From contig CAVRGM010000002.1 of NCBI GenBank assembly GCA_963720715.1, forward strand, positions 129,871-193,870: 64,000 nt of DNA, in the 5' to 3' direction. Shown here in pieces: positions 5,374-60,254 of the stretch. The DNA is from an uncultured Chloroflexia bacterium. GTDB lineage: Bacteria; Chloroflexota; Limnocylindria; Limnocylindrales; CSP1-4. Made by a program: the position numbers and the translations under genes. Below the pieces are notes generated by a model. That model was not told the DNA's origin. It ran no database searches and saw only the letters and a list, made by a program, of their open reading frames with translations. The stretch's first letter is position 1; each line of letters starts with the position of its first letter.

Positions 5374-5384
5374 ACGACGGCCCG

Positions 5385-39825: not shown

Positions 39826-40420
39826 GTGACTCTGGACGATGCCGCGATCGAGCGGCTGGTGGATGCGGCGCGAGCGGGGGACGGCGGAGCCTTCGGGCGG
39901 CTGTTCGACCACTATCACCGACCGGTCTATCGCTACGTCGCCAGCCGTGTGCGCCGCCCGAGCGACGCGGAGGACCTGACGCAGTCGATCTTCGTCAAGG
40001 CCCTGGAAGCCTTGCCGCGCTATGAATCCCGCGGCATCCCGTTCGGGGGCTGGCTGTTCCGCCTGGCACGGAACGCGGTCATCGATTTCGTCAGGACCAG
40101 CCACGAGCACGCCGACCTCGCCCAGTCGGTCGATCGCGCCGGGCCTGACGCCGCGCCCGGACGACCTGGCCGTCACGCGCCAGGAGATCGAGGCGGTGGG
40201 GATCGCCCTGGCAACCCTGACCGATGACCAGCGGGAGGCCATCGCCCTGCGCTTCTTCGCCGGCCTGTCCGCCCGCGAGGCCGCCGAAGCGATGGGCAAG
40301 CAGGAAGGCACCATCCGGGGGCTGCAGTTCCGGGCGATCGCCGCGCTTCGGCGCCAGCTCGGGATCGAACAGCCGGTCCAGCGTGAGGCCGGCACGCCGA
40401 CAGGTTCGGAGATGTCGTGA
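39826..40420 (+). pseudogene. ECF (sigma-70 family) sigma factor, with regions 2 and 4 in different frames (apparent +1 frameshift near 40110-40165)
   Basis: ORF 39826..40227 carries region 2 (FGRLFDHYHRPVYRYVASRV...RNAVIDFVR). ORF 40022..40420 carries region 4 (LTDDQREAIALRFFAGLSAREAAEAMGKQEGTIRGLQFRAIAAL). A single-base indel would fuse them. Confidence 0.6.
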
Positions 40421-41070
40421 TGGACGACGAGATGAGCGACGGAATAGACGACCAGGCCCAGCCCGGCGACGCGGAGGTCGAGCGCCGACTGTCGGCCTTT
40501 GCGAACGCGCGCCTGTCACCGACCCTCGACGCGGAGGCCCGGATCCGGGCAACGGTGATGGCCCGCGTGGCGGCGCCGAGCGGCCCGACGGCTGGCCCGG
40601 CCGCGACGACACGCCGCTGGCGTGCTCCGCGTCCGATCGCGCTGCTCCTGGCAGCGTGTCTCACGCTGGCGGTCATCGTTGGTGGCGCGCTGGCGGCGCG
40701 GCCTGGCGGGCCGTTGTATGCCACGAGCGTGTCCATCGAGGCGGCGAACCTGCCGACCCAGCTGGCGCAGCGTGCCCAGGCCGAAGTCGATCGACTGGAA
40801 CGGCGGATCGCCGAGGCCCGATCGGCGGTGGCCGGTCGAGACGCCGGTGCCGCGGAGGCCGCATTGACGGCGTATTCGAGCATCGTGACCGTGGCTGGCA
40901 CAGAGTCCGGTGGCGATGCGTCGGCGGTAGCCACGCTCGCCAGCACCCTGACTCGACACGTCGGGATCCTTGAGGGATTGGTAGGCACGGTGCCCGCACC
41001 TGCGGCGGACGCCGCGACGCAGGCGCTTCAGTCGTGCAACATGACGCTTGATGGACTCGATCAGCCGTAG
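40417..41070 (+). CDS. Putative anti-sigma factor (single TM; coupled to the ECF sigma gene)
   Basis: ATGA overlap with the sigma gene stop. Acidic N-terminus, a TM segment (IALLLAACLTLAVIVGGALAA) and a coiled-coil C-terminus. Confidence 0.6.
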   Translation: MMDDEMSDGIDDQAQPGDAEVERRLSAFANARLSPTLDAEARIRATVMARVAAPSGPTAGPAATTRRWRAPRPIALLLAACLTLAVIVGGALAARPGGPLYATSVSIEAANLPTQLAQRAQAEVDRLERRIAEARSAVAGRDAGAAEAALTAYSSIVTVAGTESGGDASAVATLASTLTRHVGILEGLVGTVPAPAADAATQALQSCNMTLDGLDQP

Positions 41071-42960: not shown

Positions 42961-43993
42961 TTACGAAGCGCAGAGCGCGTAGGCGGTCAGCGACGGCGGG
43001 TTGCCGTTCTGCTGATTCCCAGCGACGATCGTCGCGACGACTGTCCACGTCGTGCCATTGCCGTTGGGATAGGAGGCGGTGATCGCGGCGTAATGCTTTG
43101 CGTTGTTCCCGGTGACTTCGCCACCGCCGGCGACGAGCGTTCCCGAGGAACATGTCGCCGTCGCGGTCACGGTCGTCCCGAGGCCGTTATTGCCGTTGAA
43201 ACCGCTGGTGGTGCCAGTGTTCCTCGCCACGCTGCCGAGGCCACCGGAGGGACCAGCTGGACCGGCTGGACCGGTGTCGCCCGTGTCACCCTTGTTGCCC
43301 TTCGGCCCCTGGTCGCCCTGGGGCCCCGTGTCGCCCTGCGGCCCGGTGTTACCCTGCGCGCCAGCGGCACCTGGGGCTCCGTCTGCGCCGGCAGGACCCT
43401 GCGGTCCGGGATCGCCCTGAGGACCGGCAGGACCCTGGGCGCCATCAGCACCGGCAGGGCCCTGGGCGCCATCAGTACCAGCTGCGCCGTCAGCACCAGC
43501 CGCACCATCGGCACCAGCGGGACCCTGGGCGCCATCAGCGCCGGCAGGACCCTGGGCGCCATCGGCGCCTGCAGGACCCTGGGCGCCATCGCACCAGCGC
43601 GCCTGCAGGACCCTGGGCGCCATCGGCACCGGCAGGACCCTGGGCGCCATCGGCACCGGCGGCACCGTCAGCGCCGGCCGCACCCTGGGCACCCGTGGCG
43701 CCCTGCGCACCGGTCGCACCGGTCGCACCGGTCGCACCCGTGGCTCCGGTCGGTCCCGTCTTATTCCACTCGACGTAGATCTTGCCGGACTTGCAGCTCG
43801 TTGGGCTGGCCTTGGGCCGGATCTTGACATTGTGATTCTTCGGGTTCAGACAACCTTTGATCGTCGTCCCGCCACCGGGCGGGTACGAGGATGCGGCGAG
43901 CGCCGCGCCGGACAGGCTGAGCGCCAACGCCCCGGCCATGACGACCGTGGCCGGCTTGCGATAGCGGCTGATCTGAGGTGAGATCGTGATCAT
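42961..43993 (-). pseudogene. Collagen-like triple-helix repeat protein (paralog 1): signal peptide, a Cys-containing N-domain, G-X-Y repeats and a C-terminal globular domain, split by a frameshift near 43590-43620
   Basis: ORF 43535..44107 supplies the N-terminus (MITISPQISRYRKPATVVMAGALALSLSGAALA...[45 protein letters not shown]). ORF 42961..43830 supplies the remaining G-X-Y repeats and the C-domain. One 27-nt repeat unit is replaced by an irregular 34-nt unit (gccatcgcaccagcgcgcctgcaggaccctgggc). Confidence 0.6.
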
Positions 43994-44118
43994 TCGGTGC
44001 CCTCTCGGGATGCAGGACTGGTCGCGCAAGAAGTCGCGCGATGGATGAAGTCCAGCCGAATAGTCGTTCCCGCGGTGCGTCGGCGCGATGAGTCCAATGG
44101 ACCGCACGGACCGGTACC

Positions 44119-45099
44119 TTATAGCCCCTCAACACGGATGCCAGCAGGCATGAAAGAACCCCGCCAGGTTGCTCCGGCGGGGTTCTTCGTGACGTCAGAC
44201 GGAATCTGCCGTCGATCGAGATTCGCTAAGCTTTCGCGCACACCACGTACGCCTGCAAGCGAATAAGACGTGTTGCCAAGGCTAAAGGAGACATCGCCGG
44301 TCGCCGTCCATGTATCCGAAGCACTCGGATAGCTATTGGTGATGACCACGGCCCCAACGTTGCTCACGTTGCTGGTCCGGAAGCCGCCACCGATCGCGAC
44401 CTTGCTGCCGGGGCAGGTGGCCGTCACGGACTTGGCATTCTCGTTGTCGGTCGATGCCGTTCCGTTGACGATCTCGTAGCCACTCACGCCGTCAGCGCCG
44501 TCAGCGCCGTCAGCTCCATCGGCCCCGTTTGCCCCGTCAGCCCCGTCAGCACCATCGGCGCCGTCAGGACCGGGATCGCCCTGGGGACCGGGATCGCCCT
44601 GGGGACCGGGATCGCCCTGGGGACCGGCAGGTCCGGGATCGCCCTGGGGACCGGGATCGCCCTGGGGACCAGTAGCGCCGTCGGCGCCATCTGCACCTGG
44701 GGCGCCGTCAGCGCCGTCAGCACCGGCGGGTCCGGGATCGCCCTGGGGACCGGGAATGCCATTACCGTCAGCGCCGGCAGGACCGACATCGCCTTGGGGA
44801 CCGGCGGGACCGGCAGGACCGGCAGGACCATCTGCGCCCGCGGGACCGGCTGGGCCTTGGATCGACCACTCGACGTATTTCGTGCCCTTCTTGCAGGAGG
44901 AAGGCGATGCCTTCGGGCGGATCTTGATGTAGTGGTTATCCGGGTTGAGGCAGCCCTTGATGATCGTCTCGCCGTGGGGCGGGTAGGCGGTCGTGTCTGC
45001 GGCACCAACGGCGCCGGCCATGCCCAGAGCGAGGACTCCTGCGGCCATCATGGTGAATGGCTTTCGGTAGCGACCGATGGAACTCGGGAATGTCGCCAT
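44119..45099 (-). CDS. Collagen-like triple-helix repeat protein (paralog 2); the 3' end is possibly frameshifted
   Basis: [33 protein letters not shown] signal, the same [26 protein letters not shown]-domain, about 50 G-X-Y triplets ([12 protein letters not shown]..., GADGADG...) and a C-domain [15 protein letters not shown]. An alternative frame at the 3' end ends ...[10 protein letters not shown], matching paralog 1's ...TAYALCAS*. Confidence 0.7.
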
Positions 45100-45302
45100 G
45101 CGTACCCCTTTCGCTTGCGGACCTTGTCTCGAGGAATGCGGTGAGACACATTGAGTCCACTAGGCACATTCTCAGGCCCGCTGGCTGGCGACACTATAGG
45201 CCGGACCGCCTAACCTTTGTCCAGACTGGATAGGCAGTTGGTCGGGTGCGGGTCACGACCACCCCGGACCATCGGGGCAGCCGATCCGGTCGGCGAAGTC
45301 GG

Positions 45303-46244
45303 CTAGTTGGTCAGGTGGAGCGTCGGGCTCCCGAGGAACCTTGGGCAGGAGCCGAACGCACAGCCCGTTGTCGTCAGCTGCTCGTTGACGTACGGGGCGA
45401 CGAAGTAGCCGGTGATGTGCTTGTTGCTGCCGCCGGACGCGCTCACGACGTGGAACGTGGCCCAGCCCTGGAAGTTGCCGTTGTGGTCGACGACCGGGAC
45501 CGGCACATTGGTGCCAGCGAGATATGACTGAACGTCGCTGTACAGCGCCGTGTGGTTGCCGTTGTTGTGCTGGCCGATGTATTCACCGAATGCCAACGTC
45601 TTGTTGATCACGAGCGAGCCGTCGATGATGCTGCGGACGGTGCTCGTGTTGACGTTGCCGGTCCCGTAGTTCGTCCAGGCGATGTCGCCCGGTCCGTTCG
45701 GGATGTCCCCGTTGCCTTCGCCGAAGTCATATGGGTTTGACGGATTGGCGTAGGCAGACAGTGGCTGACCGTTCGGCCCGAACGCATCGATGCTGAAGAT
45801 GAATGGTGCCCCACCGTTCACGGTATCGGGGTAGCCGCTCTGTGCGGTCGCAGTGGTACTCACATCCCAACTCGGCATGCCGACGATCGAGGCGAAGTTG
45901 TTGCGGTGCGGCGCGGTGATGTCGACCTTGACGATCGCCCCGTTCGTCGTCGTGATCGCCACGTTGACGGAAACGCCGTCGGTCCCGTGCGTGTAGCCAT
46001 TGATCGCGGCCACCGACCGGGCTCGAGCGATCGCGAGTGGCGTGTCCGAATTGAGCAGGTAGTCATTGGCTGCAGCGAGTGCCGACAGGTCGGCAGCGCT
46101 CTGCTCGTCGCGACGCATGGCGAAGGAGGATCCACCGTCGAGCACGAGGCCCACCATGGCGATGAGGGCGATGAGTGCGAGTGCGAAGAGGACGACGATC
46201 TGCCCCGCCTGACCCCTGCGGTCGGCCCGGTCGATTCGATTCAT
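45303..46244 (-). CDS. TadG-like pseudopilin (Tad-domain N-terminus)
   Basis: Internal ATG (M59 of ORF 45303..46418). MNRIDRADRRGQAGQIVVLFALALIALIAMVGLVLDGGSSFAMRRDEQSAADLSALAAANDYL is a typical TadG/Tad-domain prepilin-like N-terminus. Confidence 0.75.
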   Translation of the reverse strand: MNRIDRADRRGQAGQIVVLFALALIALIAMVGLVLDGGSSFAMRRDEQSAADLSALAAANDYLLNSDTPLAIARARSVAAINGYTHGTDGVSVNVAITTTNGAIVKVDITAPHRNNFASIVGMPSWDVSTTATAQSGYPDTVNGGAPFIFSIDAFGPNGQPLSAYANPSNPYDFGEGNGDIPNGPGDIAWTNYGTGNVNTSTVRSIIDGSLVINKTLAFGEYIGQHNNGNHTALYSDVQSYLAGTNVPVPVVDHNGNFQGWATFHVVSASGGSNKHITGYFVAPYVNEQLTTTGCAFGSCPRFLGSPTLHLTN

Positions 46245-46261
46245 GGTTGTGCCTGGACCTT

Positions 46262-46678
46262 TCACTGGATGTTCACTGAACTGCTGGATTGCATGTCGAA
46301 GGTGCCGACGAGGCCAAGGATCGGCGTGATCGGCGTGTATGGCGCGTGGATCACGACCTTGACCTGATAGCCCGCGCGACAGGTCGTGGCGATGGTCGAA
46401 CCGTCGATGTCGACGCAATAGAAGGTCGGATTCGCGAGACCGGGGATGAGTTTCTTTTGCGTGGCCAGGACGGCCACGGTCTCGGCGCTGGTCCCGAGCG
46501 GACTGCCGGGATGGACGCTCGTCGCCCGGGCGATCTCGCGAGCCGCCTGGGAAACCCCGTTGTACATGTAGATGCCTCGACCCATGTCGAAGACGCCCAT
46601 CAACAGCATCATGAAGATCGGCAGAGCCAGAGCGAACTCGAGAACCGCCTGGCCACGCTCGGCTCGCACTCGGCGCAT
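46262..46678 (-). CDS. TadE-like pseudopilin
   Basis: ATG at 46678 (M92). RGQAVLEFALALPIFMMLLMGVFDMGRGIY is a TadE-family N-terminal motif. The start shares one nt with the upstream stop. Confidence 0.75.
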   Translation of the reverse strand: MRRVRAERGQAVLEFALALPIFMMLLMGVFDMGRGIYMYNGVSQAAREIARATSVHPGSPLGTSAETVAVLATQKKLIPGLANPTFYCVDIDGSTIATTCRAGYQVKVVIHAPYTPITPILGLVGTFDMQSSSSVNIQ

Positions 46679-47989
46679 CAATTGGTCACCGTGACCTGGT
46701 GCGACACCGTGCTCGAACCGCCAAGGGTCGAGACCGTCAGCTGGATCGTGTAGATGCCGGACGAGTTGTAGACGTAGCCCGGCGGGTTCTGGAGCGACGA
46801 GTTGCCGCTGCCGTCGCCGAAGTTCCACGACCAGGTGTTGTTGCAGCCGGCCGTCGTCATGTTCGTCGACGCGTCCGTTACGGCGAAGGACGCCTTCTTC
46901 TTCTTGCCGCTTGCCGGTGTGACGGTGAACGCCGCCACGGGCACCGGACATGGGGCCGCGGCATTGATCGTCTTCGTCTTGGTGTCAGAGCCAGTTCCGT
47001 TGGTGACGGTCAGGCGCGACGTTATAGACACCGATCGTCAGGGTAGGTATGGACCGGCGGAGATTGCACGTTCGACGTCTGGCCGTCACCGAAGTCCCAC
47101 GCCCACAGCGTCGGGGTCCCGGTCGACGTATCGGTGAACGTGACGTCGAGTGGCGCAGCGCCCGTCATCGGCGACGCATTGAAGGCGGCGACCGGCGGCT
47201 GCCGGGGCGGCCGAACTCACCGTGATCGTCCGTGTGACCGAGTTGCTGCCACCCGCGTTCGTCACCGTCAGGCGCGCATAGAAGAACCCGAGCGACGCGT
47301 AGGTGTGGGCTGGCGGGTTCTGGCCGACGAAGGTCTGCCCGTCACCGAAGTCCCACGACCATGTGGTCGGCCCTCCGGTCGAGGTATCGACGAACGTCAC
47401 CGCCAAGGGTGCGGTGCCGGACGTGGGGGTCGCGGTGAAGTTCGCGCTTGGCGCCGCCGACACGAGGTTCGGCGTCACCAGGAGCTGCGCCGAGGCTGTC
47501 GAGTCGAACGAGATCTCCTGACCGCCGAAAAAGCTCGAGAGGAGCGGCGTCAGCAACGTGAAATGACCGGAAACCCGGACCGAGACCGTATCGCCGAGGG
47601 CGCTGGACGTCGGCGGGCACGGCGTACGTCGAGCACTCCATCGTGACGTCCGTCGCTGCGACTGTGACGAAGCTGCCTTTTGCCTCGTTGAGCGCCCGAC
47701 ACATGACCCGGTTCTGCTCCTTGTTGGCCGAGGTGCAGGCCGTATTCGGGATGAACGAGGACGGGTTGCGAGAAGCCTCGAGGGCTGCCTCGCGGGCGGC
47801 GTCATTGACGCTGATCTGCGAATAGAAGAGGCGGCCGAGATCGATGGCCGCGCCAAGCATGATCAGCATGATCGGCAGGATCAGGGCGAGCTCGACGATG
47901 GCCTGCCCTCGAGATCGAGAAGCACGCTTCGAGGCGGTGCGGCTACCCGTTGACGAAGGGCGTCGCCCCCTCAACGGAATGGAGTTCAT
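46678..47989 (-). pseudogene. TadE-like N-terminus fused to three PKD domains, split across three frames (at least 2-3 frameshifts)
   Basis: Frame a (47342..48022): MNSIPLRGRR...RGQAIVELALILPIMLIMLGAAIDLGRLFYSQ. Frame b (47086..47856): ...FSFLTPLL-type linker plus PKD (TTWSWDFGDGQTFVGQNPPAHTY...ARLTVTN). Frame c (46678..47031): the end of a second PKD plus a third PKD (TWSWNFGDGSGNSSLQNPPGYVY...IQLTVS). WDFGDG-encoding motifs are visible at about 47350, 47090 and 46815. Confidence 0.55.
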
Positions 47990-48154
47990 GAACGTGAGGC
48001 CTCTGCTTGGTGCGTTGGACATGAGGTGTCGTCAAAACACCATCGCCCCGACACCTTTCAGCCTCACTTGAAACGGTGCCCGCGTGCATAGCCCGGACGT
48101 TCACACCAAAGGCTCAATCGTCCTGTCGCGATCGCAACTCACGCCCGAAATGGA

Positions 48155-48180
48155 AGAGCCGCGACTCGTGTCGCGGCTCT
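48155..48180 (-). terminator. 11-bp stem-loop (AGAGCCGCGAC tcgt GTCGCGGCTCT) 24 nt downstream of the TadG-like stop, followed by a T-rich stretch
   Basis: Perfect inverted repeat read from the sequence. It lies in the 180-nt gap between tandem module 2 (TadG-like) and module 1 (TadE-PKD). Confidence 0.5.
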
Positions 48181-48203
48181 TTGCGCAGGGCCGGAACGAC
48201 GAC

Positions 48204-49259
48204 CTAGTGGATCAGCTGGACGGCCAAGGGAGCGCCCGCGAATCCCGGCGTGGATGTGGTCGGACCCGTGAAGAACGGAACTCTCCAGACGCCTTCGACA
48301 TCCTTGCCGCCGTGGCACGCCGTGAGCTGGAAGCCCGTGAACCCGACGATGTGGTACCAAGCGTTCTGGCCAGTGCCACCCGCGTAGTCCCAGACTGGTA
48401 CGGTCACGACGATCTTGTTGGTGATGTAGTAGTCGCAGTCCGCGCTCGCCTTGTTACCCGGAAGGTTGCCGATCTTGTCAGCGCTACCAGGGAGGCCGAC
48501 TTCGGTGCAGCATCCAAAGCTATTGGATGGTGGCCCGATCTCGGTCTGCAAGAACGGCTTGGAATTCGCACAGCCGCCATTGGAGCCCTGACCCAGCCCA
48601 TAACCGGAGCAGCCGAACTTGAGCCACCCGAAGCCGCCCGGGACGTTGAGCGTGCCCGGCGTCATATGGGCCGGATAGCACGGGTCTCCTGGCACGTTGC
48701 TGACCGGGCCGGAGCAAGGCTGACGCCCGTCGAAGAATGCCTGGGCGATCCCGACCGGGAACACTCCCGTTCCGGGGCCGCCCGCGGCATACCCGCCTCG
48801 AGCGATCGCATCCGCGGTCGCTGTCCAGTTGTTGAATCCGGCGATCGACAGGAAGTACGGCTTCCAGTCATTGCTCGACGACACCTTGACGCCCACGGCC
48901 GTCCCGGGCATCGTCCCGGAGCCCACATACCCGAGCGTCCCGCCCGCGGCATTGACGTAGCGAGGCCCATCCGGTGCGCCAAAGACGATCGGTGTCCCCT
49001 TGTTGGCAGCAATAGACGCGACGATCGCCGCTTTGACGTTGGCGTCTGTGCCGTTGGCCGCATCTCCGCCGATCTTGACCGCGACGACACGAGCTCCGGC
49101 CATCGCTGCAAAGTCCGATGCGTTCTGGGCCTCGCGTCGATGAACGAGCGCGGTGCCACCGTCGATGACGAGGCCAACCAACAGGATGATGGCGACGAGG
49201 CTGATGCCGAACAGGGCGATCATCTGACCTCGCTGACCGGCGCGCGACGTGTTTGGCAT
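48204..49259 (-). CDS. TadG-like pseudopilin (paralog of 45303..46244)
   Basis: ATG at 49259 (M64). MPNTSRAGQRGQMIALFGISLVAIILLVGLVIDGGTALVHRREAQNASDFAAMAGA. The Cys/Gly-rich C-terminal region is shared with the paralog. Confidence 0.75.
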   Translation of the reverse strand: MPNTSRAGQRGQMIALFGISLVAIILLVGLVIDGGTALVHRREAQNASDFAAMAGARVVAVKIGGDAANGTDANVKAAIVASIAANKGTPIVFGAPDGPRYVNAAGGTLGYVGSGTMPGTAVGVKVSSSNDWKPYFLSIAGFNNWTATADAIARGGYAAGGPGTGVFPVGIAQAFFDGRQPCSGPVSNVPGDPCYPAHMTPGTLNVPGGFGWLKFGCSGYGLGQGSNGGCANSKPFLQTEIGPPSNSFGCCTEVGLPGSADKIGNLPGNKASADCDYYITNKIVVTVPVWDYAGGTGQNAWYHIVGFTGFQLTACHGGKDVEGVWRVPFFTGPTTSTPGFAGAPLAVQLIH

Positions 49260-49270
49260 TGCTGGGCTCC

Positions 49271-49766
49271 CTAATTGATCGTCATGGTCGCCGCGCCGGC
49301 GAGCGTCACGTTGCCCACGATGTTCCCGATGACCGGAGTGAGCGGTCGAAATGTGAGTTCCGTCCGAACCGACACGCGATTGCCGTTTGTTGGCGACCCG
49401 CACGTCGTATCTGTCCACGCCCCGGTCGGCGCTGCGCCGCTCGTGCATTTCGTATAGACCTTGTTGGTCGGGATAGATTCAAATGGCGCGACCATCCGAT
49501 TGGCCGCATTCGCGACGTCTGTCCGCCACACGCTCACGTTCGCCGGACACGTCGGGCCACCCGATGTCCCGCAACTTGCATCAGCCTTGCCGATCCAACT
49601 GGCCTCGACTGATCCGACCCGAGTGGCTTCTCTGGCCGCCTGGGACAGCACCGTGTTCATGTACACGAGCCGACCCACGTCGATGAGCCCGAACAACATC
49701 AGCAGGAAGATCGGCAGCACGAGCGCGAACTCAACGAGCGCCTGGCCTGCGTCGTCGGCGTGTCAC
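49271..49766 (-). CDS. TadE-like pseudopilin (paralog of 46262..46678), with the N-terminus apparently frameshifted
   Basis: Frame B encodes ...GQALVEFALVLPIFLLMLFGLIDVGRLVYMNTVLSQAAREA but has no start codon. Frame A, directly upstream, reads GTG-TRRRRRPGAR*. A one-base indel would give MTRRRRRPGQALVEFALVLP..., a typical TadE N-terminus. Confidence 0.6.
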
Positions 49767-50870
49767 GGAAAGACGACCTGATGGCTCACCGCGCGAGCCG
49801 GATCGACACGATCCATTCGTGACGGTCAGGGTGACTGTGAACGTGCCTGAATTTCCGTAGGCGTTGGAGTCGTTCTGCGGCCGGTTCCGCTGATTGCCCG
49901 TCCCCGAAGATCCAGGCCCAAGATGACCGGGGCCGGTTGGCCGCTGTAAGCGCCGTAGAACGTCATCTCGTGCTTCTTTGCCCCATTGCCCTGCCCAGTG
50001 AACGCGTACGTGAATGTCGGAAGCGTTGTGCATACGGGGCCAGTGGGGGTTGGCGCCGGCGTCGCAGTCGGCGCGGGCGTAGGCGTCGCGGTTGGCGTAG
50101 GTGTCGGCGTCGCGCCGGGGCCCGACTGCGATGAACTGCGTCGAGGAAAGCTCACCCCCGGGATTGCTGACCGTAAGCGTGATCCGGTATGTCTGCGCGC
50201 CTGCGTACGTGTAGCTCGCAGTCCTACCAACGATCGGTGGGAAGGGATCAAGTCCATCACCCATATCCCAGTCGTAGCCGGATATTGCACACGCCCCTGT
50301 ACTTGGAGCTGCAGCGGATGCGTCCAATGCGACGTCGTACGTCGCGACAGTGACCGTGAAGGCCGCGCTGGTTGGGGGTGCGCACCCGGACGGCGGCGCC
50401 GCGCCGCCGTTCGGGGCGAGACCGAGAACCGCCGCCGTCGAGGATGACTTGATGTCAAGTCCGCCGCCGAAGAAGCTGTTGATCAGCGGCGTGAGGAAGG
50501 AGAATCGCTCGGTGACGTTCACCGTCACGGTGTTGCCCGTTCCTCCTCCTCCGGCTGCATCGACGCATGAGATCGTCGTCCCGGCGGGATTGGCACACGT
50601 CGCTGCGACCGCCAGCGTGCTTTCTCCCGTCTGGCCCTGGACATTGGTTTCCTGCCGAGCGCGGGACGTCATCGTCGCGCTGTCGTTCGGATAGACGGAG
50701 CCGTAGGAGGCCGCTTCGCGCGACGCGTTGCTGATCTGGACGTAGGAGAAGAACATCCGCCCGACGTCGATGGCGATGAGCAGAAACAGGAGGAGCAACG
50801 GCAACAGTAGAGAGAACTCGACCAATGCCTGGGCCCGCGACTTGTCGGAGCGAGATCGATTCAGGCGCAA
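49731..50870 (-). pseudogene. TadE-like N-terminus fused to PKD-like domain(s) and a PT-linker (paralog of 46678..47989), split over at least two frames
   Basis: Frame A (TTG start at 50870): MRLNRSRSDKSRAQALVEFSLLLPLLLLFLLIAIDVGRMF...FSFLTPLINSFFGG...ISGYDWDMGDG...YRITLTVSN, then nonsense. Frame B (49826..50458): PTPTPTATPTPAPTATPAPTPTGPVCTTLPTFTYAFTG... continues the protein. Confidence 0.5.
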
Positions 50871-51132
50871 GGGATGGCGTGAGACCGTCTGTCGCGTGCG
50901 CGACGAGGCGATCGCCGGGATCCGTGGGCCGGGTAATCGGGGCGAATTCTTTCGGGCACCGGCGGATACTAGGCCGGAAACCTTACGCCGGACCTTTCAC
51001 TTTGTCGGGGGTGACCAAGGTTCGGTGCCGTCACGCACCGTCCGCGGCCCCGAGCGAGCCCTGGGACCGTACTCGGGCAGGACTTCCGGGCGGGTGGTCG
51101 AACGCGCGGTCGCCGTCGCACCATGGCGCGCC

Positions 51133-51351
51133 ATGAGACGAGTCGTCGCCACGATCCTGTGGTTCTACGTTGGCTGGTATGCCGGAAACATGGTGGCTGA
51201 GTTGATCGGCGTGACGCCGTATCTCGGTCCAGTCGTCGGTGTGGCCCTCGCCCTCGTGGCCCTTGGGGATCCCCGGCGCTTCCGGACAGCGACCAAGGCA
51301 TCGGAGCAGACGACTGCCTCGATCGCCGAGGGCCAGACCGAACCGTCCTGA
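51133..51351 (+). CDS. Small two-TM membrane protein (72 aa)
   Basis: Internal ATG of ORF 50770..51351. MRRVVATILWFYVGWYAGNMVAELIGVTPYLGPVVGVALALVALG. Confidence 0.3.
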   Translation: MRRVVATILWFYVGWYAGNMVAELIGVTPYLGPVVGVALALVALGDPRRFRTATKASEQTTASIAEGQTEPS

Positions 51352-51361
51352 CCGGTCTGGG

Positions 51362-52780
51362 TCAGGCCTCCGTGCCTGGTTCACCTGGGAGCTGGATGCT
51401 GAACGTGCTGCCCGAGCCGACGACGCCGTCGGCGAGGCTGAGTTCCCCGCCCATGGCTCGGCACAGTTCCCTCGATACGTAGAGCCCAAGGCCGCTGCCC
51501 TCGCTCGACTGGCCAGTTTCGCCTCGGGCGAACCGCGCGAATAGTCTCGATCGATCCTCCGGCGCGATGCCCGGGCCGCCGTCGGAGATCGTCATGCACA
51601 GGCGCGCCGCCTCCGCATCGACCGTGACCGCCACCGTGACCGGCGAACGGCCGCCGTACTTGATGGCGTTGTCGAGGAGGGCCCACAGGACCTGGTCGAG
51701 CTGGTCGCCGTCGGCGATGGCCAACCAGCCGCCGGAACCATCATCGAGGCTGAAGTCGACGTCGTCCGCGCCGAGTGCCTCCCACGCTTTGCGCGCGCGG
51801 GTCGCCAGGTTGAGCACCTCCGCTCGCGGTCGCAGCGCCCCGGACTCGAGCCGGTTCACCATCAGGAGCTGGCGGACCATCCGCGACAAGCGTTCGGCCT
51901 GCTCGGAGATGATCCCCAGGCGTCGATCCGGGTGGTCGCCTTCGAGCTGCTCGGCATAGGCACGGATGCTCGTCAGCGGGGTCTGAAGGTTGTGGCTGAC
52001 GCCCCGCAGGAAGTCATCCTTGGCGGCATCGAGCTCAAGAAGCTGAGCGTTCTGGGACTCGACCTGGCTGAACAGCTGGGCGTTCCGGATGGCGATGGCC
52101 ACCTCGCTGGTGAACAGCTGGAGCAGGTCCTGATCGGCCGGCTCCCAACGCCGGGTGGCGGGCAGCCGACCCAGCAGGACACCGAGTTCATCGCTGCCGG
52201 CGCGCATCACTGCCCGTAGCTGGCGGACCTCGCCGGCCACGACCTCGACCTCCGGCACCAGCGACGGATCGCCCAGGATGACGGTCGCATCGATGAGCCC
52301 GAACGCGGCTCGCGCGTCCTTGCCCGCCCGCTCGACGAGGTCCTCCACGCCATCGCGCGGCGACATCGATTCGATGGCGGCCAGGATCTTGTCCAGCTCG
52401 CGGTTCCGCCGTTCGAGCGACGCGGCCAGTGTGTTGTGGCTCTCCGACAGTCGAGCGAGTTCGTCGTCGCCGGCAACTTGGATGGGTGTCGAAAGATCAC
52501 CACTCGAGACCCGGTCGACGGCCTCGGCGACATCGTGCAGTGGCCGGGTCAGGTCGCCGACGAGGACGTATGAGCCGAGGATCGACAGGACGGCGACGAT
52601 GGTCAGCCCGAACAGCAGCAGGCGGCTGAGGTTTGCGTCGGCCGATGATCCACCGAGCGCCGAACCGACGACCAGCACGAAGATCCCGAAGATGGCCAGC
52701 GGACTGAGCGACGCGAGCATCAACGCCCCCGTCAATCGCGTCCGGAAGCTCAGTCCAGGCGACCGCTCCGGGTCAGGCAT
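51362..52780 (-). CDS. Sensor histidine kinase (TM-HAMP-HisKA-HATPase)
   Basis: ATG at 52780 (M20) overlaps the response regulator stop by 8 nt. H-box GVSHNLQTPLTSI; G-box GSGLGLYVS. Confidence 0.85.
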   Translation of the reverse strand: MPDPERSPGLSFRTRLTGALMLASLSPLAIFGIFVLVVGSALGGSSADANLSRLLLFGLTIVAVLSILGSYVLVGDLTRPLHDVAEAVDRVSSGDLSTPIQVAGDDELARLSESHNTLAASLERRNRELDKILAAIESMSPRDGVEDLVERAGKDARAAFGLIDATVILGDPSLVPEVEVVAGEVRQLRAVMRAGSDELGVLLGRLPATRRWEPADQDLLQLFTSEVAIAIRNAQLFSQVESQNAQLLELDAAKDDFLRGVSHNLQTPLTSIRAYAEQLEGDHPDRRLGIISEQAERLSRMVRQLLMVNRLESGALRPRAEVLNLATRARKAWEALGADDVDFSLDDGSGGWLAIADGDQLDQVLWALLDNAIKYGGRSPVTVAVTVDAEAARLCMTISDGGPGIAPEDRSRLFARFARGETGQSSEGSGLGLYVSRELCRAMGGELSLADGVVGSGSTFSIQLPGEPGTEA

Positions 52781-53525
52781 CGACCGACAGGTCCGGCGGC
52801 GGAACGCCGACCGTCGGCACGAGCCGGTAGCCGACACCCCGGACGGTCTGGATGTGGATCGGGCGATTGGGGTCCATCTCGACCTTCTGGCGGAGCCGTC
52901 GCATCGTCACCCAGACATAGGAAGGGTCGGCGTCGTCGGTGTCCGCCCAGCCACGGGCGAGGAGCGTTTCGGTCGGGACGGTCTGGCCGATGCTCGCGGC
53001 GAGCGCGTACAGCAGGCGCGATTCGGTCGGGGTCAGCTCGACCGTCTTGCCACCGACGGTCGCCTCGCGTCGATGGAGGTCGAGGGTGAGGTCCGGACCG
53101 AGGACAAGGCTCTGGCGCGGGACCTTGTCGCCGAGTCGGCGCAGCACTCGATTGATCCGCGCTCGCAGCTCCGGGTAGTGATACGGCTTGGTGACGTAGT
53201 CCTCGGCCACCTCCTCGAGGAGATCGGCCTTGGAGTCGCCGGCATCGATGGCCGACAGGACGATGACGGGCAGGTCGGCTCGAGACTTGATCTCGCGGGC
53301 CAGGGACAGGCCGTCCATCCGGGGCATCATCATGTCGATGATCAAGAGGTCCGGCCAGGCGGTCTCCATCCGTCTGAGTGCCTCCACGCCGTCGCGTGCC
53401 GTGATCGTCTCGAACCCGTCCGCCTGGAGCTGGTCGGCCAGCAGGACGAGCAGGTTCGGGTCGTCATCGACGATGAGGATTCGTGGGGCCTGCAGCCGCG
53501 GCCCCGTGGGCCAGACGCTCGACAT
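52773..53525 (-). CDS. OmpR-family response regulator
   Basis: ATG at 53525 (M39). RILIVDDDPN, DLLIIDMMMPRMDG and a winged-helix C-terminus. Confidence 0.85.
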   Translation of the reverse strand: MSSVWPTGPRLQAPRILIVDDDPNLLVLLADQLQADGFETITARDGVEALRRMETAWPDLLIIDMMMPRMDGLSLAREIKSRADLPVIVLSAIDAGDSKADLLEEVAEDYVTKPYHYPELRARINRVLRRLGDKVPRQSLVLGPDLTLDLHRREATVGGKTVELTPTESRLLYALAASIGQTVPTETLLARGWADTDDADPSYVWVTMRRLRQKVEMDPNRPIHIQTVRGVGYRLVPTVGVPPPDLSVDA

Positions 53526-53572
53526 CGTCGGAGGATAGCAGCGGGCCGGGGCGTGCCCGGACCCCGACGTGG

Positions 53573-54301
53573 TCAGTCGGACTTCTTGCCCTCGACCGCC
53601 TGATCGCGCAGTTCGGGTCGGAAGTCGGCTTCGGGCCACGGGGGCACGGGGGACTCGGGGCCGTCGGCAGGTGCCTCGACGTCGCTCCCATCAGGGTCGC
53701 TCGCATCGGCGTCGCTCGTATCGTCGCCGTATTCGAGCTCCGAGGCGGCGATCATCTGGGTCCGGTTGATCAGAACGAACGGATACTCACCGGTGATCCG
53801 ATCCTCAGCCAGGGAGCGAACGGTCACCTCCGTGACCGAGACGAAACGAGGATCGGTGGCATCGACGAAGCCGTCGATGTGGGTCTGGCCGAACAGGTAG
53901 ACGTGACCGGACAGCGTGTGCGCCGGTGTGAACATGACGAACTCGCGAGCCCGGCGAACCTCGATGCCGGGGGTCGACATCTCTTCGACGAAACCGGTCG
54001 CGACGAGCGTCTCCGGTGGTTGTTCCTCGCTCTGGGCGATGAACGAGATCTCGTCCTGGTCGACCATGATCTCCGCGAACTCTGCACCTGTCGGCTCGCC
54101 GTCGGGCCGGAGGAGGCGGACATCGTGGACGCGGATGTACCCGCTCGAGGCATTGATCAGGTCCGACAACCGGCCGAACCGGCCCAGCCCGACCTTGCCC
54201 ACGAGCCGGAGGTGGAGACCGAAGAGCTCGATCGCCTGCTCGTGCTCGCTCCCGCCAGCAGCGACACCGTCGCCGATCGTGAAGCCACTCTCCCAACTCA
54301 T
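53573..54301 (-). CDS. Conserved hypothetical protein (243 aa) upstream of the two-component system, with an acidic C-terminal tail
   Basis: ATG at 54301 (M49 of ORF 53573..54445). No recognisable motifs. Confidence 0.5.
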   Translation of the reverse strand: MSWESGFTIGDGVAAGGSEHEQAIELFGLHLRLVGKVGLGRFGRLSDLINASSGYIRVHDVRLLRPDGEPTGAEFAEIMVDQDEISFIAQSEEQPPETLVATGFVEEMSTPGIEVRRAREFVMFTPAHTLSGHVYLFGQTHIDGFVDATDPRFVSVTEVTVRSLAEDRITGEYPFVLINRTQMIAASELEYGDDTSDADASDPDGSDVEAPADGPESPVPPWPEADFRPELRDQAVEGKKSD

Positions 54302-54578: not shown

Positions 54579-54670
54579 GACGGCGCGGGCGGTCGCGGTC
54601 GCGTGTCCGGGTGAGATCCAGATCTGTGGCGGTCGACTGACGGGTGATCGCTGATCGCGATGATGCGGGC

Positions 54671-55324
54671 ATGCCAACGCGAGAGCGACGAGTGGATCGC
54701 GGCCGACGGACCGGACTCAGGATCCGTCAGGCCGTAGGCGATGAGTTCCGCGAGGCCAGACTTGCACTGGGTCTTCGTCAGGAAGATGTCGGGCGCGCGG
54801 CGGACCTTTCACCTACCCAGGTCGGCCGCATCGAGCGGGGAGTCTTGACCAGCGTCACCATCGACCAACTGGCTCGACTCGCCGCCGTTCTGGGACTCGA
54901 CTTGACGGTCAAGGTCTATCCAGGAGGACGTCCGCTGCGCGACCAGGCTCAAGTCACGCTGCTCGACCGATTTCGGGCCGATCTCGGGCCTTCGCTTGCG
55001 CTGCTCACCGAGGTGCCGGTCCCGATCATGGGTGATCGGCGTGCCTGGGATGCCCAAGTCGTCGGTGGCTCTGCGACTATCGGCGTCGAGGCGGAAACCA
55101 GATTGCGCGACGCGCAGGCGGTGCTGCGGCGGATCGCACTGAAGAAGCGCGACTCGAATATCGACGTCGTGATCCTGCTTCTCGCCGATTCGCGCACCAA
55201 TCGGGCAGCAGCGCGCGACGCCGAAACGTCGCTGCGGGCGATGTTCCCGACGCCGCCACGGGAGGCACTTCGAGCGCTGCGCCAAGGCTCGATCCCGCGC
55301 GCATCGGCGCTCCTCATCCTGTGA
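54671..55324 (+). CDS. XRE-family helix-turn-helix transcriptional regulator with a C-terminal domain of unknown function
   Basis: ATG at 54671 (alternative GTG at 54644). HTH region LRQEDVGRAADLSPTQVGRIERG. Confidence 0.7.
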   Translation: MPTRERRVDRGRRTGLRIRQAVGDEFREARLALGLRQEDVGRAADLSPTQVGRIERGVLTSVTIDQLARLAAVLGLDLTVKVYPGGRPLRDQAQVTLLDRFRADLGPSLALLTEVPVPIMGDRRAWDAQVVGGSATIGVEAETRLRDAQAVLRRIALKKRDSNIDVVILLLADSRTNRAAARDAETSLRAMFPTPPREALRALRQGSIPRASALLIL

Positions 55325-56776: not shown

Positions 56777-58420
56777 CTACTTGTATGTGTACTCGTCGGC
56801 CGCCGTGGCCGTCGACGCGCCGCCCGGTGTGGTCACGATGATGTCGACCGTCTTGCCCTTGGTGCCGGCCGGCGCGGTCAGGCTGATCGACGTGTCGCTC
56901 GTCACGGTGAAGCCCACCGGCTTCCCGCCGAACGTGACCGACGTGGCCCCGGTGAAGAAGACGCCGGTGACGGTCACCCCGTTGCCGCCCACCGCGAGCC
57001 CGGACCCAGGGCTGACGCCCTTGACGGCCGGGATCGGGTACAGCTGGACGAGGTGGGAGCCGCTCTTGGCCAGTTGCGCGGCGGCCGCCTTGAAGATCCC
57101 GGACAGGTCGGTCGAGGCCCCGGTCTTGCCGATGCAGAAGAAGTGGTCGTCGTCGGTGTTCTCGGTCGCCGTACAGGTGGTCGGATTGACCGTCGGTTGG
57201 GTCGACATACTGGCCAGGAGAGCCGTCGCGGTCTTGCCCTTCCAGGCGCCGGACGTATCCGGGCAGGCGGGATCACCGCCGCTGGCGGCGTCCAGCCCGA
57301 AGCCGATGGTGAAGATCTCGATGTTCTGCGCCTTCGCGGCAGCGGCCGCGTTGCTCGCCAGGAGGCAATAGTTCGGCCCGGAGCCCACCGCGTTGTTCGG
57401 CTGGCCGTCGGTCTCGAAGATGATCCCCTTGCGGACACCGGGGCGACCGTTCTTGATCAATTCGTAAGCCGCCGTCGTGATCGGGTCGGCGAGATCCGTG
57501 CCGGTGCTCGAATTCGTGTAGCAGGCGATCGCCGCCGAGACCTTCGAATAGTTCGAACTGAAGGACGACCCGACGCCGCTCAGGCCGACGGGGACCCAGC
57601 GCCGCAGGTCCGTGGGCAGGTTAGCCGTCCCGATCGCACTCGCGCCGCCTGCGACGCAGCCGCCCGAGGTGACGCTGGGCCCAAGCGCGCCGAGTCCCAG
57701 CCACTGGACGTTCGGGTCATACAGGCTGACAATCGAGTTCGCGGCTGCCTTGGCGTTGGTCGTATCGGTGCCGCTCATGCTGCCCGTCCGGTCCATCACC
57801 AGCATGACGTCGACCGGCGTGACCGGAGATTTCCCGCATGGGCCGTTGCACGCCGCGGAGGTGACGACGCCGGTCGATCCGCTGTTGACGCCGACGACGC
57901 GAGAGAACGAGTAGGGCGTCGTGGCGGCCCCGGAGATGAACACCGCGTTGCACATGTCGCCGACTTTCGGCACGCACGACGAGAACCTCGTCGGACCCGC
58001 GCCGTAGAAGTCGCTGGCGACCGGCTGCCGGCCCATCGACTTGCTGGGATCGCAGACGAGCGGGATGTCTCGCGAGATGTAGGGCTTGGCCGGCGTGCTC
58101 GTGTCGACTCCGATGAGGCACTTGTAGCTGATCGTGTAGGCCGACGACGGCAGGCCCGGGTAGTTGGCCTGGATCGTCTTGGTGATCAGGCTGTCGGCGG
58201 CCGCGGCCGATCCGGCCACGGAGCCATCGACTGGCAGCAGGGTCCCGCCGGCGAGCGCCGCGGAGTCGAGCGCATTGGCCAGCGTCTGGCGGTCGTTTCG
58301 CAGCAAGCCGATGTCGACGACCATCCCGGCGAAGGCCAGGATGACCACGAGAACGAGCGCGAACAGGACGATGATCTGGCCCTGTTCGCCCTCGGCGTGG
58401 GCATGGCGGAGGCGGCGCAT
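56777..58420 (-). CDS. TadG-like pseudopilin with a von Willebrand factor A domain and a C-terminal IPT/TIG (Ig-like) domain
   Basis: N-terminus EGEQGQIIVLFALVLVVILAFAGMVVDIGLLRNDRQTLANALDSAALAG. vWA MIDAS-like motifs DVMLVMDRTGSMSG and IIFETDGQPN. C-terminal TIG region VTVTGVFFTGATSVTFGGKPVGFTVTSDTSISLTAP. Confidence 0.8.
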   Translation of the reverse strand: MRRLRHAHAEGEQGQIIVLFALVLVVILAFAGMVVDIGLLRNDRQTLANALDSAALAGGTLLPVDGSVAGSAAAADSLITKTIQANYPGLPSSAYTISYKCLIGVDTSTPAKPYISRDIPLVCDPSKSMGRQPVASDFYGAGPTRFSSCVPKVGDMCNAVFISGAATTPYSFSRVVGVNSGSTGVVTSAACNGPCGKSPVTPVDVMLVMDRTGSMSGTDTTNAKAAANSIVSLYDPNVQWLGLGALGPSVTSGGCVAGGASAIGTANLPTDLRRWVPVGLSGVGSSFSSNYSKVSAAIACYTNSSTGTDLADPITTAAYELIKNGRPGVRKGIIFETDGQPNNAVGSGPNYCLLASNAAAAAKAQNIEIFTIGFGLDAASGGDPACPDTSGAWKGKTATALLASMSTQPTVNPTTCTATENTDDDHFFCIGKTGASTDLSGIFKAAAAQLAKSGSHLVQLYPIPAVKGVSPGSGLAVGGNGVTVTGVFFTGATSVTFGGKPVGFTVTSDTSISLTAPAGTKGKTVDIIVTTPGGASTATAADEYTYK

Positions 58421-58425
58421 CGGGA

Positions 58426-58896
58426 TTACTCGCGAACCATCTGGACCGTGGAGCCCAGGTCGATCGTGTTCCCGAAGAGCAACGGGAAGAACGTGTGATA
58501 CGTGTAGGTCACGTTGACCGAAACGGCATCACCGGCCTGCGAACCGGTCGACGACGAGAATGAACAGGACCCCGACGTGGCGATCGCGACGCAGCTCGTG
58601 TTGACCCCGATATCGGCCTTGACCAGCCCGGTCGACACGGACAGGACCTTGCCCTTGGCGACGCTCGGGATCGTGGTGGGATCGCTTGCGATGATGGCCT
58701 GGCGGGCTCCCTCGCGGGCGGCACTGATGACGGTCATCCGGGAGTAGAGCAAGAAGCCGAAGTCCAGGATGCCGGACAAGACCAGCAGGAATGCCGGCAG
58801 GACGATGGCGAATTCCACGAGCGCCTGGCCTCGGGAGCGAGGTCTGCGGCGCCGTCGCCGGGAGCCTGGTGCCAATGATCGGTCGGTGGTAGGCAT
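58426..58896 (-). CDS. TadE-like pseudopilin
   Basis: MPTTDRSLAPGSRRRRRRPRSRGQALVEFAIVLPAFLLVLSGILDFGFLLYSRMTVISAAREGAR. Confidence 0.75.
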   Translation of the reverse strand: MPTTDRSLAPGSRRRRRRPRSRGQALVEFAIVLPAFLLVLSGILDFGFLLYSRMTVISAAREGARQAIIASDPTTIPSVAKGKVLSVSTGLVKADIGVNTSCVAIATSGSCSFSSSTGSQAGDAVSVNVTYTYHTFFPLLFGNTIDLGSTVQMVRE

Positions 58897-59090: not shown

Positions 59091-60254
59091 TCAGCCGCCC
59101 AGCGTTATGAGCCTGGCCAGCCGCTCCCCGGCGCGCTCGAGCGGGACGATCCCGGCGGCCATCGCCTCGGTGACGGTGCATGGTCGTTCAGTCGCCGACA
59201 CCGCGATCGCGCCGACCGCGGCCAGTGCCCGGATGCCATCGGGCTCGACACCGCCACCGATCGCGATGCACGGGACTCCGGCGTCCCTGGCGCGCTGGGC
59301 GACCCCAAGTGCGGTCTTGCCGAACGCGGTCTGGGCGTCGATCCGGCCCTCCCCGGTGATGACGAGGTCGGCCTGGGTCAGGCGAGCTTCGAAGTCGGTC
59401 GCGTCCATCACCAGCTCGACCCCGGGCCGGAGCGCGAATCCCGCGAATCGTGGTCCGATCGCCATGAGCGCGTACCCGACTCCACCGGCGGCACCGGCAC
59501 CTGGTGCGTCACGCAGCGATACCGGTAGGTCGAGCTCGACCTCGAGCAGAGCGGCAAGGTGGGCCAGCCGGCCATCGAGATCGACGACCTGCTCGGGTGT
59601 CGCCCCCTTCTGCGGACCGTAGATGGCGGCCGCACCATCTGGACCGAGGAGGGGATTGGTGACGTCGCAGGCGACCGACAACGCGATCTGCCCGAGGTCC
59701 GGCAGCAAGGCGTCAAGATCGACCGACGCAAGGACCGTCGGGATGCCGCTCGGCGGCGGCGCCTGATCGGCACGTGGTCGATGGTCCATCCCGAGGGCGG
59801 TGAGCATCCCGAACCCGCCGTCCGAGGTCGCGCTACCGCCGATCCCCAGGATGACCTCGCGGATACCCGATCGGGCGACCTCGCCCAGCAACTCACCGAG
59901 CCCGGCCGACGTCGCGTGGACCGCGTCCCGTTCGTCCAGAGTGACCCGCGATAGGCCCGATGACTCGGCCATCTCGATGACGGCCCGCGTGCCATCCACC
60001 GATCGCAGCCAGCGCGCCTCGATCCGACGATGGATCGGGTCGGTCACCTCGGTCTGCCGCCATTCCCAGCCGCCGGCTCCAGCCACCGATTCGAGCGTGC
60101 CCTCGCCACCGTCGGCGAGCGGACAGAGGAGCACGGTGTCATCCGGCCGCGCATTCCGCCAGCCATCGGCCAAGGCGCGCGCGACGTCGACGGAGGTGAC
60201 CGAACCCTTGAATGAATCGGGTGCGATCAGGACGGTCCGCGCTCGACCGGTCAC
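59091..60254 (-). CDS. Glycerate kinase (GarK/GlxK family)
   Basis: GTG at 60254, adjacent to the gpgS stop. VLIAPDSFKGS...GGEGT...ILGIGGSATSDGGFGM...VITGEGRID. Confidence 0.8.
   Translation of the reverse strand: MTGRARTVLIAPDSFKGSVTSVDVARALADGWRNARPDDTVLLCPLADGGEGTLESVAGAGGWEWRQTEVTDPIHRRIEARWLRSVDGTRAVIEMAESSGLSRVTLDERDAVHATSAGLGELLGEVARSGIREVILGIGGSATSDGGFGMLTALGMDHRPRADQAPPPSGIPTVLASVDLDALLPDLGQIALSVACDVTNPLLGPDGAAAIYGPQKGATPEQVVDLDGRLAHLAALLEVELDLPVSLRDAPGAGAAGGVGYALMAIGPRFAGFALRPGVELVMDATDFEARLTQADLVITGEGRIDAQTAFGKTALGVAQRARDAGVPCIAIGGGVEPDGIRALAAVGAIAVSATERPCTVTEAMAAGIVPLERAGERLARLITLGG

Follow-up and report, generated by a model that had tools for sequence, protein, structure and literature searches.

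Candidate alternative minor-pilin cassettes of a Tad pilus in a genome fragment of a soil Limnocylindria bacterium (Chloroflexota)

We analysed gene order, open reading frames (ORFs) and Pfam domains in 64 kb of DNA from a soil bacterium of the Chloroflexota (Limnocylindria), a stretch referred to below as the window. Its minus strand carries genes for Tad-type minor pilins, designated cassette 1 (genes A-B-C), cassette 2 (genes D-E-F) and module 3 (genes H-I), together with a two-component system and two genes for collagen-like proteins. The region is likely to encode alternative minor-pilin (tip or priming) cassettes of a Tad (type IVc, Flp) pilus, the core of which would be encoded elsewhere. 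Each cassette mirrors the tadE-tadF-tadG set, with a large, PKD-bearing TadE-like protein, a small TadE-like protein and a TadG-like protein that lacks Glu5 and possesses a large distal domain.

For comparison, 80 species-level loci were retrieved from relatives with an alignment of TadG1, the product of gene C; individual loci are given below as L numbers. The genome that the window comes from does not figure in this set of species representatives. Homologues were labelled Candidatus Limnocylindrales, Limnocylindria or ‘uncultured Chloroflexia bacterium MFD...bin’. The Limnocylindria are seen here from metagenome-assembled genomes (MAGs) only, mostly of soil and sediment origin. The MFD genomes are Microflora Danica MAGs, which are nanopore-only, Flye-assembled and polished once with Medaka (PMC12313526).

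Minor-pilin genes of the window

A preliminary description of this DNA had read, on the minus strand, the gene order A, B, C, D, E, F, collagen-like 2, collagen-like 1 and GT2, and this order was confirmed. Its domain assignments were also borne out by profile searches, in which PF07811, PF13400, PF18911/PF00801, PF01391 and PF00535 all scored over curated cut-offs, the last of them in the GT2 gene that ends the array. The TadE/Tad domains uphold its proposal of a Tad-type pseudopilin (minor-pilin) module with six pseudopilin-type genes; it had overlooked module 3 (56777-58896) and the frameshifts in five of the genes. Altogether, eight pilin-type proteins were identified, five with TadE domains (A, B, D, E and H) and three with Tad domains (C, F and I), scoring 37.8-64.7 bits against cut-offs of 22.3-22.9 bits for these models. 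Two proteins are fused to PKD domains, as had been described, but A carries two such domains and D three, not one each.

Gene A (TadE 49 bits, PKD_4 49.5 bits) shares 76% identity with its L001 orthologue, and the unbroken orthologue in L002 has 376 amino acids. Its start is uncertain, as the position of the ATG in the closest relative reads GTA in the window, and its true 3′ end is probably near 49786. Gene B is 79% identical to the L001 orthologue. Gene D was compared with an intact orthologue of 435 amino acids in L006, along which the alignment switches frame; its stop codon and the start of gene E overlap by 1 nt, and gene E is 72% identical to the L006 orthologue. Module 3 is located 6 kb upstream of the cassettes on the same strand, just 3′ of a glycerate kinase gene, and occupies the same place in L001, with 73% identity for gene H and 72%, in one frame, for gene I. 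A scan for promoters and terminators detected no sigma-70-like promoter, and terminator-like sites were rarer than in shuffled sequence.

The leaders of these proteins are of the type expected for Flp-like prepilins. In a six-frame scan of the window, the motif [G/A]|QA(L/I/V)(V/L)E(F/L) followed by a hydrophobic stretch was confined to A, B, D, E and H, and these TadE-type leaders match the Flp leader of the relative L021 (G|QTLVEY). At the equivalent place the TadG-like proteins (C, F and I) read G|Q(M/I)(I/V)xLF, with Leu at +5 and no Glu5. That the cassettes and the Flp of this lineage have a leader in common supports processing by one shared peptidase.

TadG1 (gene C) has more than 700 homologues at 62-86% identity, and TadG2 (gene F) about 990 at 60-89%; they are separate families, both widely conserved. 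In an AlphaFold2 model of TadG1, residues 1-155 are confidently predicted, with a predicted local distance difference test (pLDDT) score of about 70-92, and form a helix (7-63) followed by strands (100-154), so that the N-terminal half of the protein is predicted to adopt a pilin-like fold of helix and β-sheet. The C-terminal domain is lineage-restricted and contains eight invariant cysteines. A search with this domain returned 123 representative matches only, nearly all of them at the C-termini of proteins of about 340-400 amino acids, and the Cys-bearing distal domain would seem confined to the TadG1 family.

The three-gene module had previously been taken for a clear tandem duplication with similarity throughout. 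We found only 34% identity between A and D, 31% between B and E and 30% between C and F, in the last pair over the N-terminal ~215 residues only, and no DNA-level similarity between the modules beyond patches of ~115 bp. The two modules are thus old paralogues, not a recent duplication.

Conservation, synteny and a direct repeat upstream of cassette 1

Genes B and C are adjacent in all 80 relatives, and gene A is found upstream of them in 77. In the window, an OmpR-type response regulator (RR) and a HAMP histidine kinase (HK) sit directly upstream of gene A. Both are encoded in a single frame and share 88% and 86% identity, respectively, with their L001 counterparts. In 25/80 relatives the module is immediately preceded by an orthologous RR (at least 70% identity), and in eight it is immediately followed by an RR of at least 65% identity.

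The closest relative is L001/L008, with TadG1 85-86% identical. Its gene order (L001) is glycerate kinase, TadE, TadG-VWA-TIG, HhH-GPD, ..., DUF6812, RR, HK, TadE-PKD, TadE, TadG1, GT2, MBL and PHP. The window is syntenic with this locus and has an additional 5.2 kb between TadG1 and GT2, comprising cassette 2 and both collagen genes, as well as an extra pair of extracytoplasmic function (ECF) sigma and anti-sigma genes between PHP and MBL. A repeat search around the 5.2-kb segment returned only collagen repeats and short motif echoes. On the opposite strand (54644-55324), an XRE-type helix-turn-helix gene occupies the place where L001 has a DUF5666 gene.

Linkage to the pilus core was evaluated in 58 informative loci, i.e., those with at least 8 kb of sequence upstream of the module. 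The genes tadA-tadB-tadC and a paralogous RR-HK pair are present immediately upstream of the module (within 10 kb) in 10 of them. In L021 the order is Flp, RcpC/CpaB, TadZ, CpaF, TadB, TadC, RR, HK, TadE-PKD, TadE and TadG1. Orthologues of both window cassettes stand beside the core in L038 and L078, and in L004 the core is 8 kb away from a TadG2 orthologue. As the module directly follows a complete core in these relatives, cassette 1 would represent the tadE/F/G set of the lineage, which in most genomes, that of the window included, appears to have been separated from the core together with the two-component system.

Further cassettes are common. Extra TadG-like genes were found within 10 kb on either side of the orthologous module in 39/80 loci, with up to four extra genes. 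The arrangement RR-HK-[A B C]-[D E F-like]-[third cassette] is shared by L024, L034, L040, L041, L057 and L076; three cassettes in a row and an extra TadG gene are present in L006, and at least four cassettes in L003.

The spacers between HK and gene A were aligned from 21 orthologous loci. Three features are conserved in this alignment: an inverted repeat, GGTGC-N6-8-GCACC; a direct repeat with the consensus TGCAAGGT-N4-TGCAAGGT, termed here the cassette box; and a Shine-Dalgarno sequence with ATG. Of the 88 loci fetched, 27 contain exact copies of the form GCAAGGT-N5-GCAAGGT; these number 36, where about 0.002 would be expected. All are on the cassette strand, and 31/36 sit 80-246 bp upstream of a TadE-type leader. 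They also precede second and third cassettes as well as core-adjacent ones. Loci with the conserved repeats include L034 (8233-8251 and 11464-11482), L021 (8375-8393), L041 and L057. In the window the degenerate copy upstream of gene A (Table 1) is the sole match at three or fewer mismatches, where 0.06 would be expected. A direct repeat whose units are spaced by roughly one helical turn, beside an OmpR-type regulator, suggests a candidate regulator box, and the cassette box is probably recognised by the adjacent RR.

The window spacer, 490 bp in length, also holds a small plus-strand ORF (~51133-51351) for a hydrophobic peptide of ~72 amino acids (...VVATILWFYVGWYAGNMVAELIGVTPYLGPVVGVALALVALG...). 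The long spacer of L031 contains a stretch resembling it.

Table 1 Features of the cassette region (positions in the 64-kb window)
Feature	Position	Strand	Basis or remarks
Module 3 gene H, small TadE-like minor pilin, 156 aa	58426..58896	-	Pfam TadE 59.5 bits
Module 3 gene I, TadG-like pilin with VWA and IPT/TIG, 547 aa	56777..58420	-	Pfam Tad, VWA, TIG
OmpR-type response regulator (RR)	52773..53639	-	Pfam Response_reg and Trans_reg_C; orthologue alignment begins ~53525
Sensor histidine kinase (HK), partner of RR	51362..52837	-	Pfam HAMP-HisKA-HATPase_c
Inverted repeat CGGTGC-N6-GCACCG in HK-gene A spacer	51023..51040	-	Spacer alignment
Degenerate cassette box TGAAAGGT-CCGG-CGTAAGGT upstream of gene A	50980..50999	-	3 mismatches to consensus
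Gene A, large TadE-like minor pilin: PKD, Pro/Thr linker, second PKD	49731..50870	-	Pfam
Gene B, small TadE-like minor pilin	49271..49766	-	Pfam TadE 64.7 bits
Gene C (TadG1), TadG-like pilin, 351 aa, intact	48204..49259	-	Pfam Tad 39.8 bits
Gene D, large TadE-like minor pilin, three PKD domains	46678..47989	-	Pfam
Gene E, small TadE-like minor pilin, intact	46262..46678	-	Pfam TadE 55.8 bits
Gene F (TadG2), TadG-like pilin, 313 aa, intact	45303..46244	-	Pfam Tad 39.1 bits
Collagen-like protein 2	44226..45099	-	Pfam Collagen 68.4 bits; 11+31 GXY triplets
Collagen-like protein 1, paralogue of collagen-like 2	42961..43993	-	Pfam Collagen; 17+38 GXY triplets

Proposed function and its alternatives

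From the domains, leaders, conservation, synteny and cis-element reported above, we infer, along the following lines, that the proteins are processed, form trimers, reach the tip and mediate adhesion, and that the RR binds its box. The Tad prepilin peptidase would cleave the leaders at G|Q-x-x-x-E-[FL], as in the Flp of the lineage. The three α1 helices may then bundle on the TadB/C platform and prime TadA-driven Flp polymerisation, so that the complex would end at the pilus tip, where the PKD, Cys-rich or VWA/TIG domains could serve as adhesins; both the priming and the subsequent display are proposed by analogy with the Kil Tips of Myxococcus (see below). Different cassettes would thereby provide different tips on a single machine. 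The adjacent OmpR-type two-component system probably controls cassette 1 via the direct-repeat box upstream of A, and would govern which cassette is chosen or expressed. A pilus-tip adhesin complex was among the functions put forward in the preliminary description, and we judge it the most reasonable one.

Several observations count against this assignment. CpaF/TadA, TadB/C, RcpC and TadZ were not found in the 64 kb by Pfam searches of large ORFs, a six-frame scan for Flp leaders revealed no window counterpart of the relative's Flp, and no prepilin peptidase was present among the scanned ORFs of the window, for which no dedicated search was made. The earlier statement that the window lacks a core therefore stands for Flp, CpaF/TadA and TadB/C and extends to the peptidase as far as the scanned ORFs go; with no Tad core in the window, the core would, as had been suggested, be encoded outside it. 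NCBIfam models gave only sub-threshold TadE matches to the pilin-type proteins (TadE_Rv3655c, Rv3654c family). In the TadG1 model the C-terminal domain has pLDDT below 35, and a Foldseek search of the model against PDB produced no match (best E = 2.9). As to the regulatory element, the box of gene A in the window carries three mismatches, only a weak copy with four mismatches lies upstream of D, and module 3 has no box upstream. Lastly, the frameshifts in the available sequence of A, B and D may leave cassettes 1 and 2 without function in this strain.

Alternative tips of a Tad filament have been described for Myxococcus xanthus, in which the Kil Tips KilL/KilM/KilN and Tip1-4 are encoded in four paralogous TadE/F/G-like clusters, three of them off-core (Herrou et al. 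2025; PMC12075869). The Kil Tips are proposed to be interchangeable heterotrimers on one Tad filament, made of a short pilin, an extended pilin and a large pilin with a disulfide-rich domain of unknown fold, and the TadEFG proteins of other bacteria are predicted to form similar tips (PMC12075869). The Limnocylindria genomes likewise possess several paralogous three-gene sets, mostly off-core, with a short, an extended and a large Cys-rich pilin. In contrast to the Kil Tips, the window has PKD repeats on the TadE-like subunit, or VWA and TIG domains on TadG; its cassettes stand in tandem arrays, with which an OmpR-type two-component system and a direct-repeat box are associated; and the host belongs to a Chloroflexota lineage without a known predatory lifestyle. 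The Kil Tip families are reported to be limited to Myxococcota (PMC12075869), and membership of the window proteins is therefore unlikely; the likeness is architectural.

With the canonical tadE-tadF-tadG genes of Aggregatibacter, Pseudomonas and Caulobacter the cassettes share the PF07811/PF13400 N-termini, the Flp-type leader, Glu5 in the TadE-like proteins, the order of small pilins followed by a large TadG, in some cases with VWA, and, in 10/58 relatives, the position behind tadA-tadB-tadC. They differ in that the window modules are off-core and present in three copies, the first subunit bears PKD domains, and TadG1 and TadG2 lack VWA and have lineage-restricted domains instead. The minor-pilin/PilY1 clusters of the Myxococcus type IVa pilus (T4aP), as far as they are presented in a later account, also offer several alternative priming or tip sets for one machine (Treuner-Lange et al. 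2020 in PMC12075869), but they belong to another pilus class and to other families, and the adhesin PilY1 is there a separate, non-pilin protein. The preliminary description had regarded the array as an undescribed orphan architecture. This does not hold, given the off-core TadE/F/G-like clusters of Myxococcus (PMC12075869) and the occurrence of the module within complete tad loci of relatives: three-gene minor-pilin sets are common in the lineage and already described in principle. What is new, in Limnocylindria, is the PKD-fused TadE subunits, the tandem cassette arrays and their association with both a two-component system and a direct-repeat box. The resulting lineage-wide picture of tandem TadE/F/G-like cassettes with PKD, VWA/TIG or Cys-rich heads is of modest value; it extends the idea of interchangeable Tad tips from predatory Myxococcota to a distant phylum and offers the cassette box as a testable regulatory element.

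The two collagen-like proteins share 44% identity. Both have a hydrophobic leader with an Ala-rich end, a signal peptide as judged by eye, followed by a small Cys-containing N-domain, 42 or 55 GXY triplets and a β-rich C-domain of ~85 amino acids with Cys at its end. Collagen (PF01391) matches in the window scored 68.4, 61.7 and 38.3 bits, all of them above the cut-off of 27.2. The long uninterrupted GXY tracts, the non-collagen ends and the signal-peptide-like leader are reminiscent of Scl1/Scl2 of Streptococcus, Lcl of Legionella and BclA of Bacillus. Unlike Scl and Lcl, the window proteins match the NCBIfam models through their repeats only and far under the cut-offs (108.7 vs 325 for SclB, 89.4 vs 500 for Lcl and 74.8 vs 400 for SclA), and no LPXTG motif was seen in them by eye; unlike Scl, Lcl and BclA, they possess a small β-rich C-domain without a significant structural match. 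This domain was modelled as a moderate six-strand β structure (pLDDT 74.6). A C1q-like or any other named fold is unsupported because only non-significant Ig-like matches (E ≥ 1) were obtained. A search with the N- and C-domains detected just three fragmentary homologues in the database, one of which (L007) has a different N-domain.

A further suggestion of the preliminary description was a single surface-fibre system formed by the minor-pilin modules together with both collagen-like proteins; on this reading, PKD-bearing minor pilins would anchor or present collagen-like fibres that are assembled through a Tad core. The pilin and collagen genes are indeed co-oriented, with short spacers of ~70-230 bp, both encode extracellular proteins, and in L084 an unrelated collagen-like ORF (5190-5657, plus strand) lies just upstream of the RR-HK-module, without homology to the N- and C-domains of the window collagens. 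Co-occurrence is missing: window-type collagen N- or C-domains were found within 10 kb of the module in 0/80 relatives, and any ORF with at least ten GXY triplets only in the L084 locus (1/80). In the closest relative GT2 directly follows TadG1, no collagen neighbour was present among the TadG2 orthologues examined, including the closest ones (79%, 73% and 63%), and the homologue in L007 is flanked by ABC-transporter and acetyl-CoA synthetase genes. Moreover, the collagen leaders resemble signal peptides, not prepilin leaders, and neither gene has a cassette box upstream (at least seven mismatches). The fibre system is already largely refuted by the lack of co-occurrence, and we consider it very improbable. 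The absence of collagen domains near the module in relatives makes the adjacency specific to the window genome, and the collagen genes look like chance neighbours of cassette 2, encoding ordinary signal-peptide-bearing proteins with no evidence of a functional link. It is similarly far-fetched that cassette 2 and the collagen genes entered the interval between TadG1 and GT2 together, as a single block, with the PKD domains of D docking collagen trimers to give a collagen-decorated Tad tip. A weaker version of this idea is more likely, namely that the Limnocylindria, as a class, regulate which of up to five Tad tip cassettes is used, through binding of an OmpR-type regulator to TGCAAGGT-N4-TGCAAGGT. 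The cassettes might otherwise serve a non-adhesive Tad-like machine, such as a short export pseudopilus or a filament for DNA uptake comparable to the Flp system of Micrococcus luteus. Tad-type systems are diverse in role, and in type II secretion, too, a pseudopilus is primed by minor pilins (PMC4322843, PMC10191384), but PKD, VWA and IPT/TIG domains are typical of adhesins and not of secretion pseudopilins, and the complete locus of L021 is headed by a bona fide Flp pilin gene; this alternative is unlikely.

Frameshifts and flanking genes

The coding sequences of A, B, D and both collagen genes (4.8 kb, five genes) contain at least nine frameshifts as sequenced. Gene A has at least three (~50120, 49925 and 49890), gene B one (~49748), between the Arg-rich leader and G|QALVEF, and gene D three (~47620, 47215 and 47040); collagen-2 has a 1-nt indel (~44256) just ahead of its C-terminal ...AYVVCAKA, and collagen-1 a 7-nt insertion within the repeat (~43590). 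None was detected in the other 17.2 kb of coding sequence in the window, which was checked for single frames against orthologues. Under a uniform rate this distribution has a probability of about 1e-6, a figure that is inflated because the five genes were chosen after the frameshifts were seen.

The segment of gene A with the WxFGDG motif of the second PKD domain is out of frame both in the window (49790-50000) and in L001 (9100-9400). This shared break could reflect a systematic consensus error or a lineage-specific decay of the domain. Programmed or phase-variable frameshifting at this site was considered and rejected because the positions of the shifts and the net shifts differ between the window and L001.

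If the frameshifts were real, A, B, D and both collagen genes would be decaying, with only module 3 and a cassette elsewhere still functional. Their clustering in 4.8 kb, against none in 17.2 kb, speaks for decay, as do the indels that are not of the homopolymer type, such as the 7-nt insertion in collagen-1, and the L001 locus, which is broken in the second PKD of gene A while the remaining called genes of its 20 kb are of normal length. Related MAGs are, however, nanopore-only Flye assemblies with a single Medaka polish (PMC12313526), and the window probably stems from the same project. Split alignments also affect RR, HK and TadB across the loci of many relatives, and PKD-bearing orthologues that are broken in the nanopore MAGs L003 and L088 are intact in the JGI contig L006. 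All frame segments are open, conserved and free of in-frame stops, which would be unusual after three independent frameshifts, and C, E and F are intact within the same operons. On balance, we lean modestly towards assembly artefacts, possibly driven by strain heterogeneity in variable surface genes; decay of these five genes with function retained elsewhere is a minority possibility. For genome scans this is a caution, as repeat genes of nanopore-only MAGs that are full of frameshifts can mimic odd gene structures.

The ECF sigma gene and the putative anti-sigma gene are located at 39826-41070 on the plus strand; sigma regions 2 and 4 lie in different frames, which amounts to one further frameshift.

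The GC content is ~68% in the window and 0.63-0.65 (as a fraction) in the region of the cassettes and collagen genes. Horizontal transfer as the cause of the lower GC at 44-50 kb was rejected because cassette 1, which is syntenic and vertically conserved, shows the same lowered value.

Upstream of module 3 (59094-63609, minus strand), we identified genes for a glycerate kinase, a Usp-GT2 fusion (an open frame of 649 amino acids) and a protein of 455 amino acids without a Pfam match, which may constitute a compatible-solute (glycosylglycerate-type) set. The two ends of the window carry repair genes of the non-homologous end-joining type: a LigD primase-polymerase domain protein at 1-1599 on the plus strand and a fragment of an ATP-dependent DNA ligase at 63631-63984 on the minus strand.

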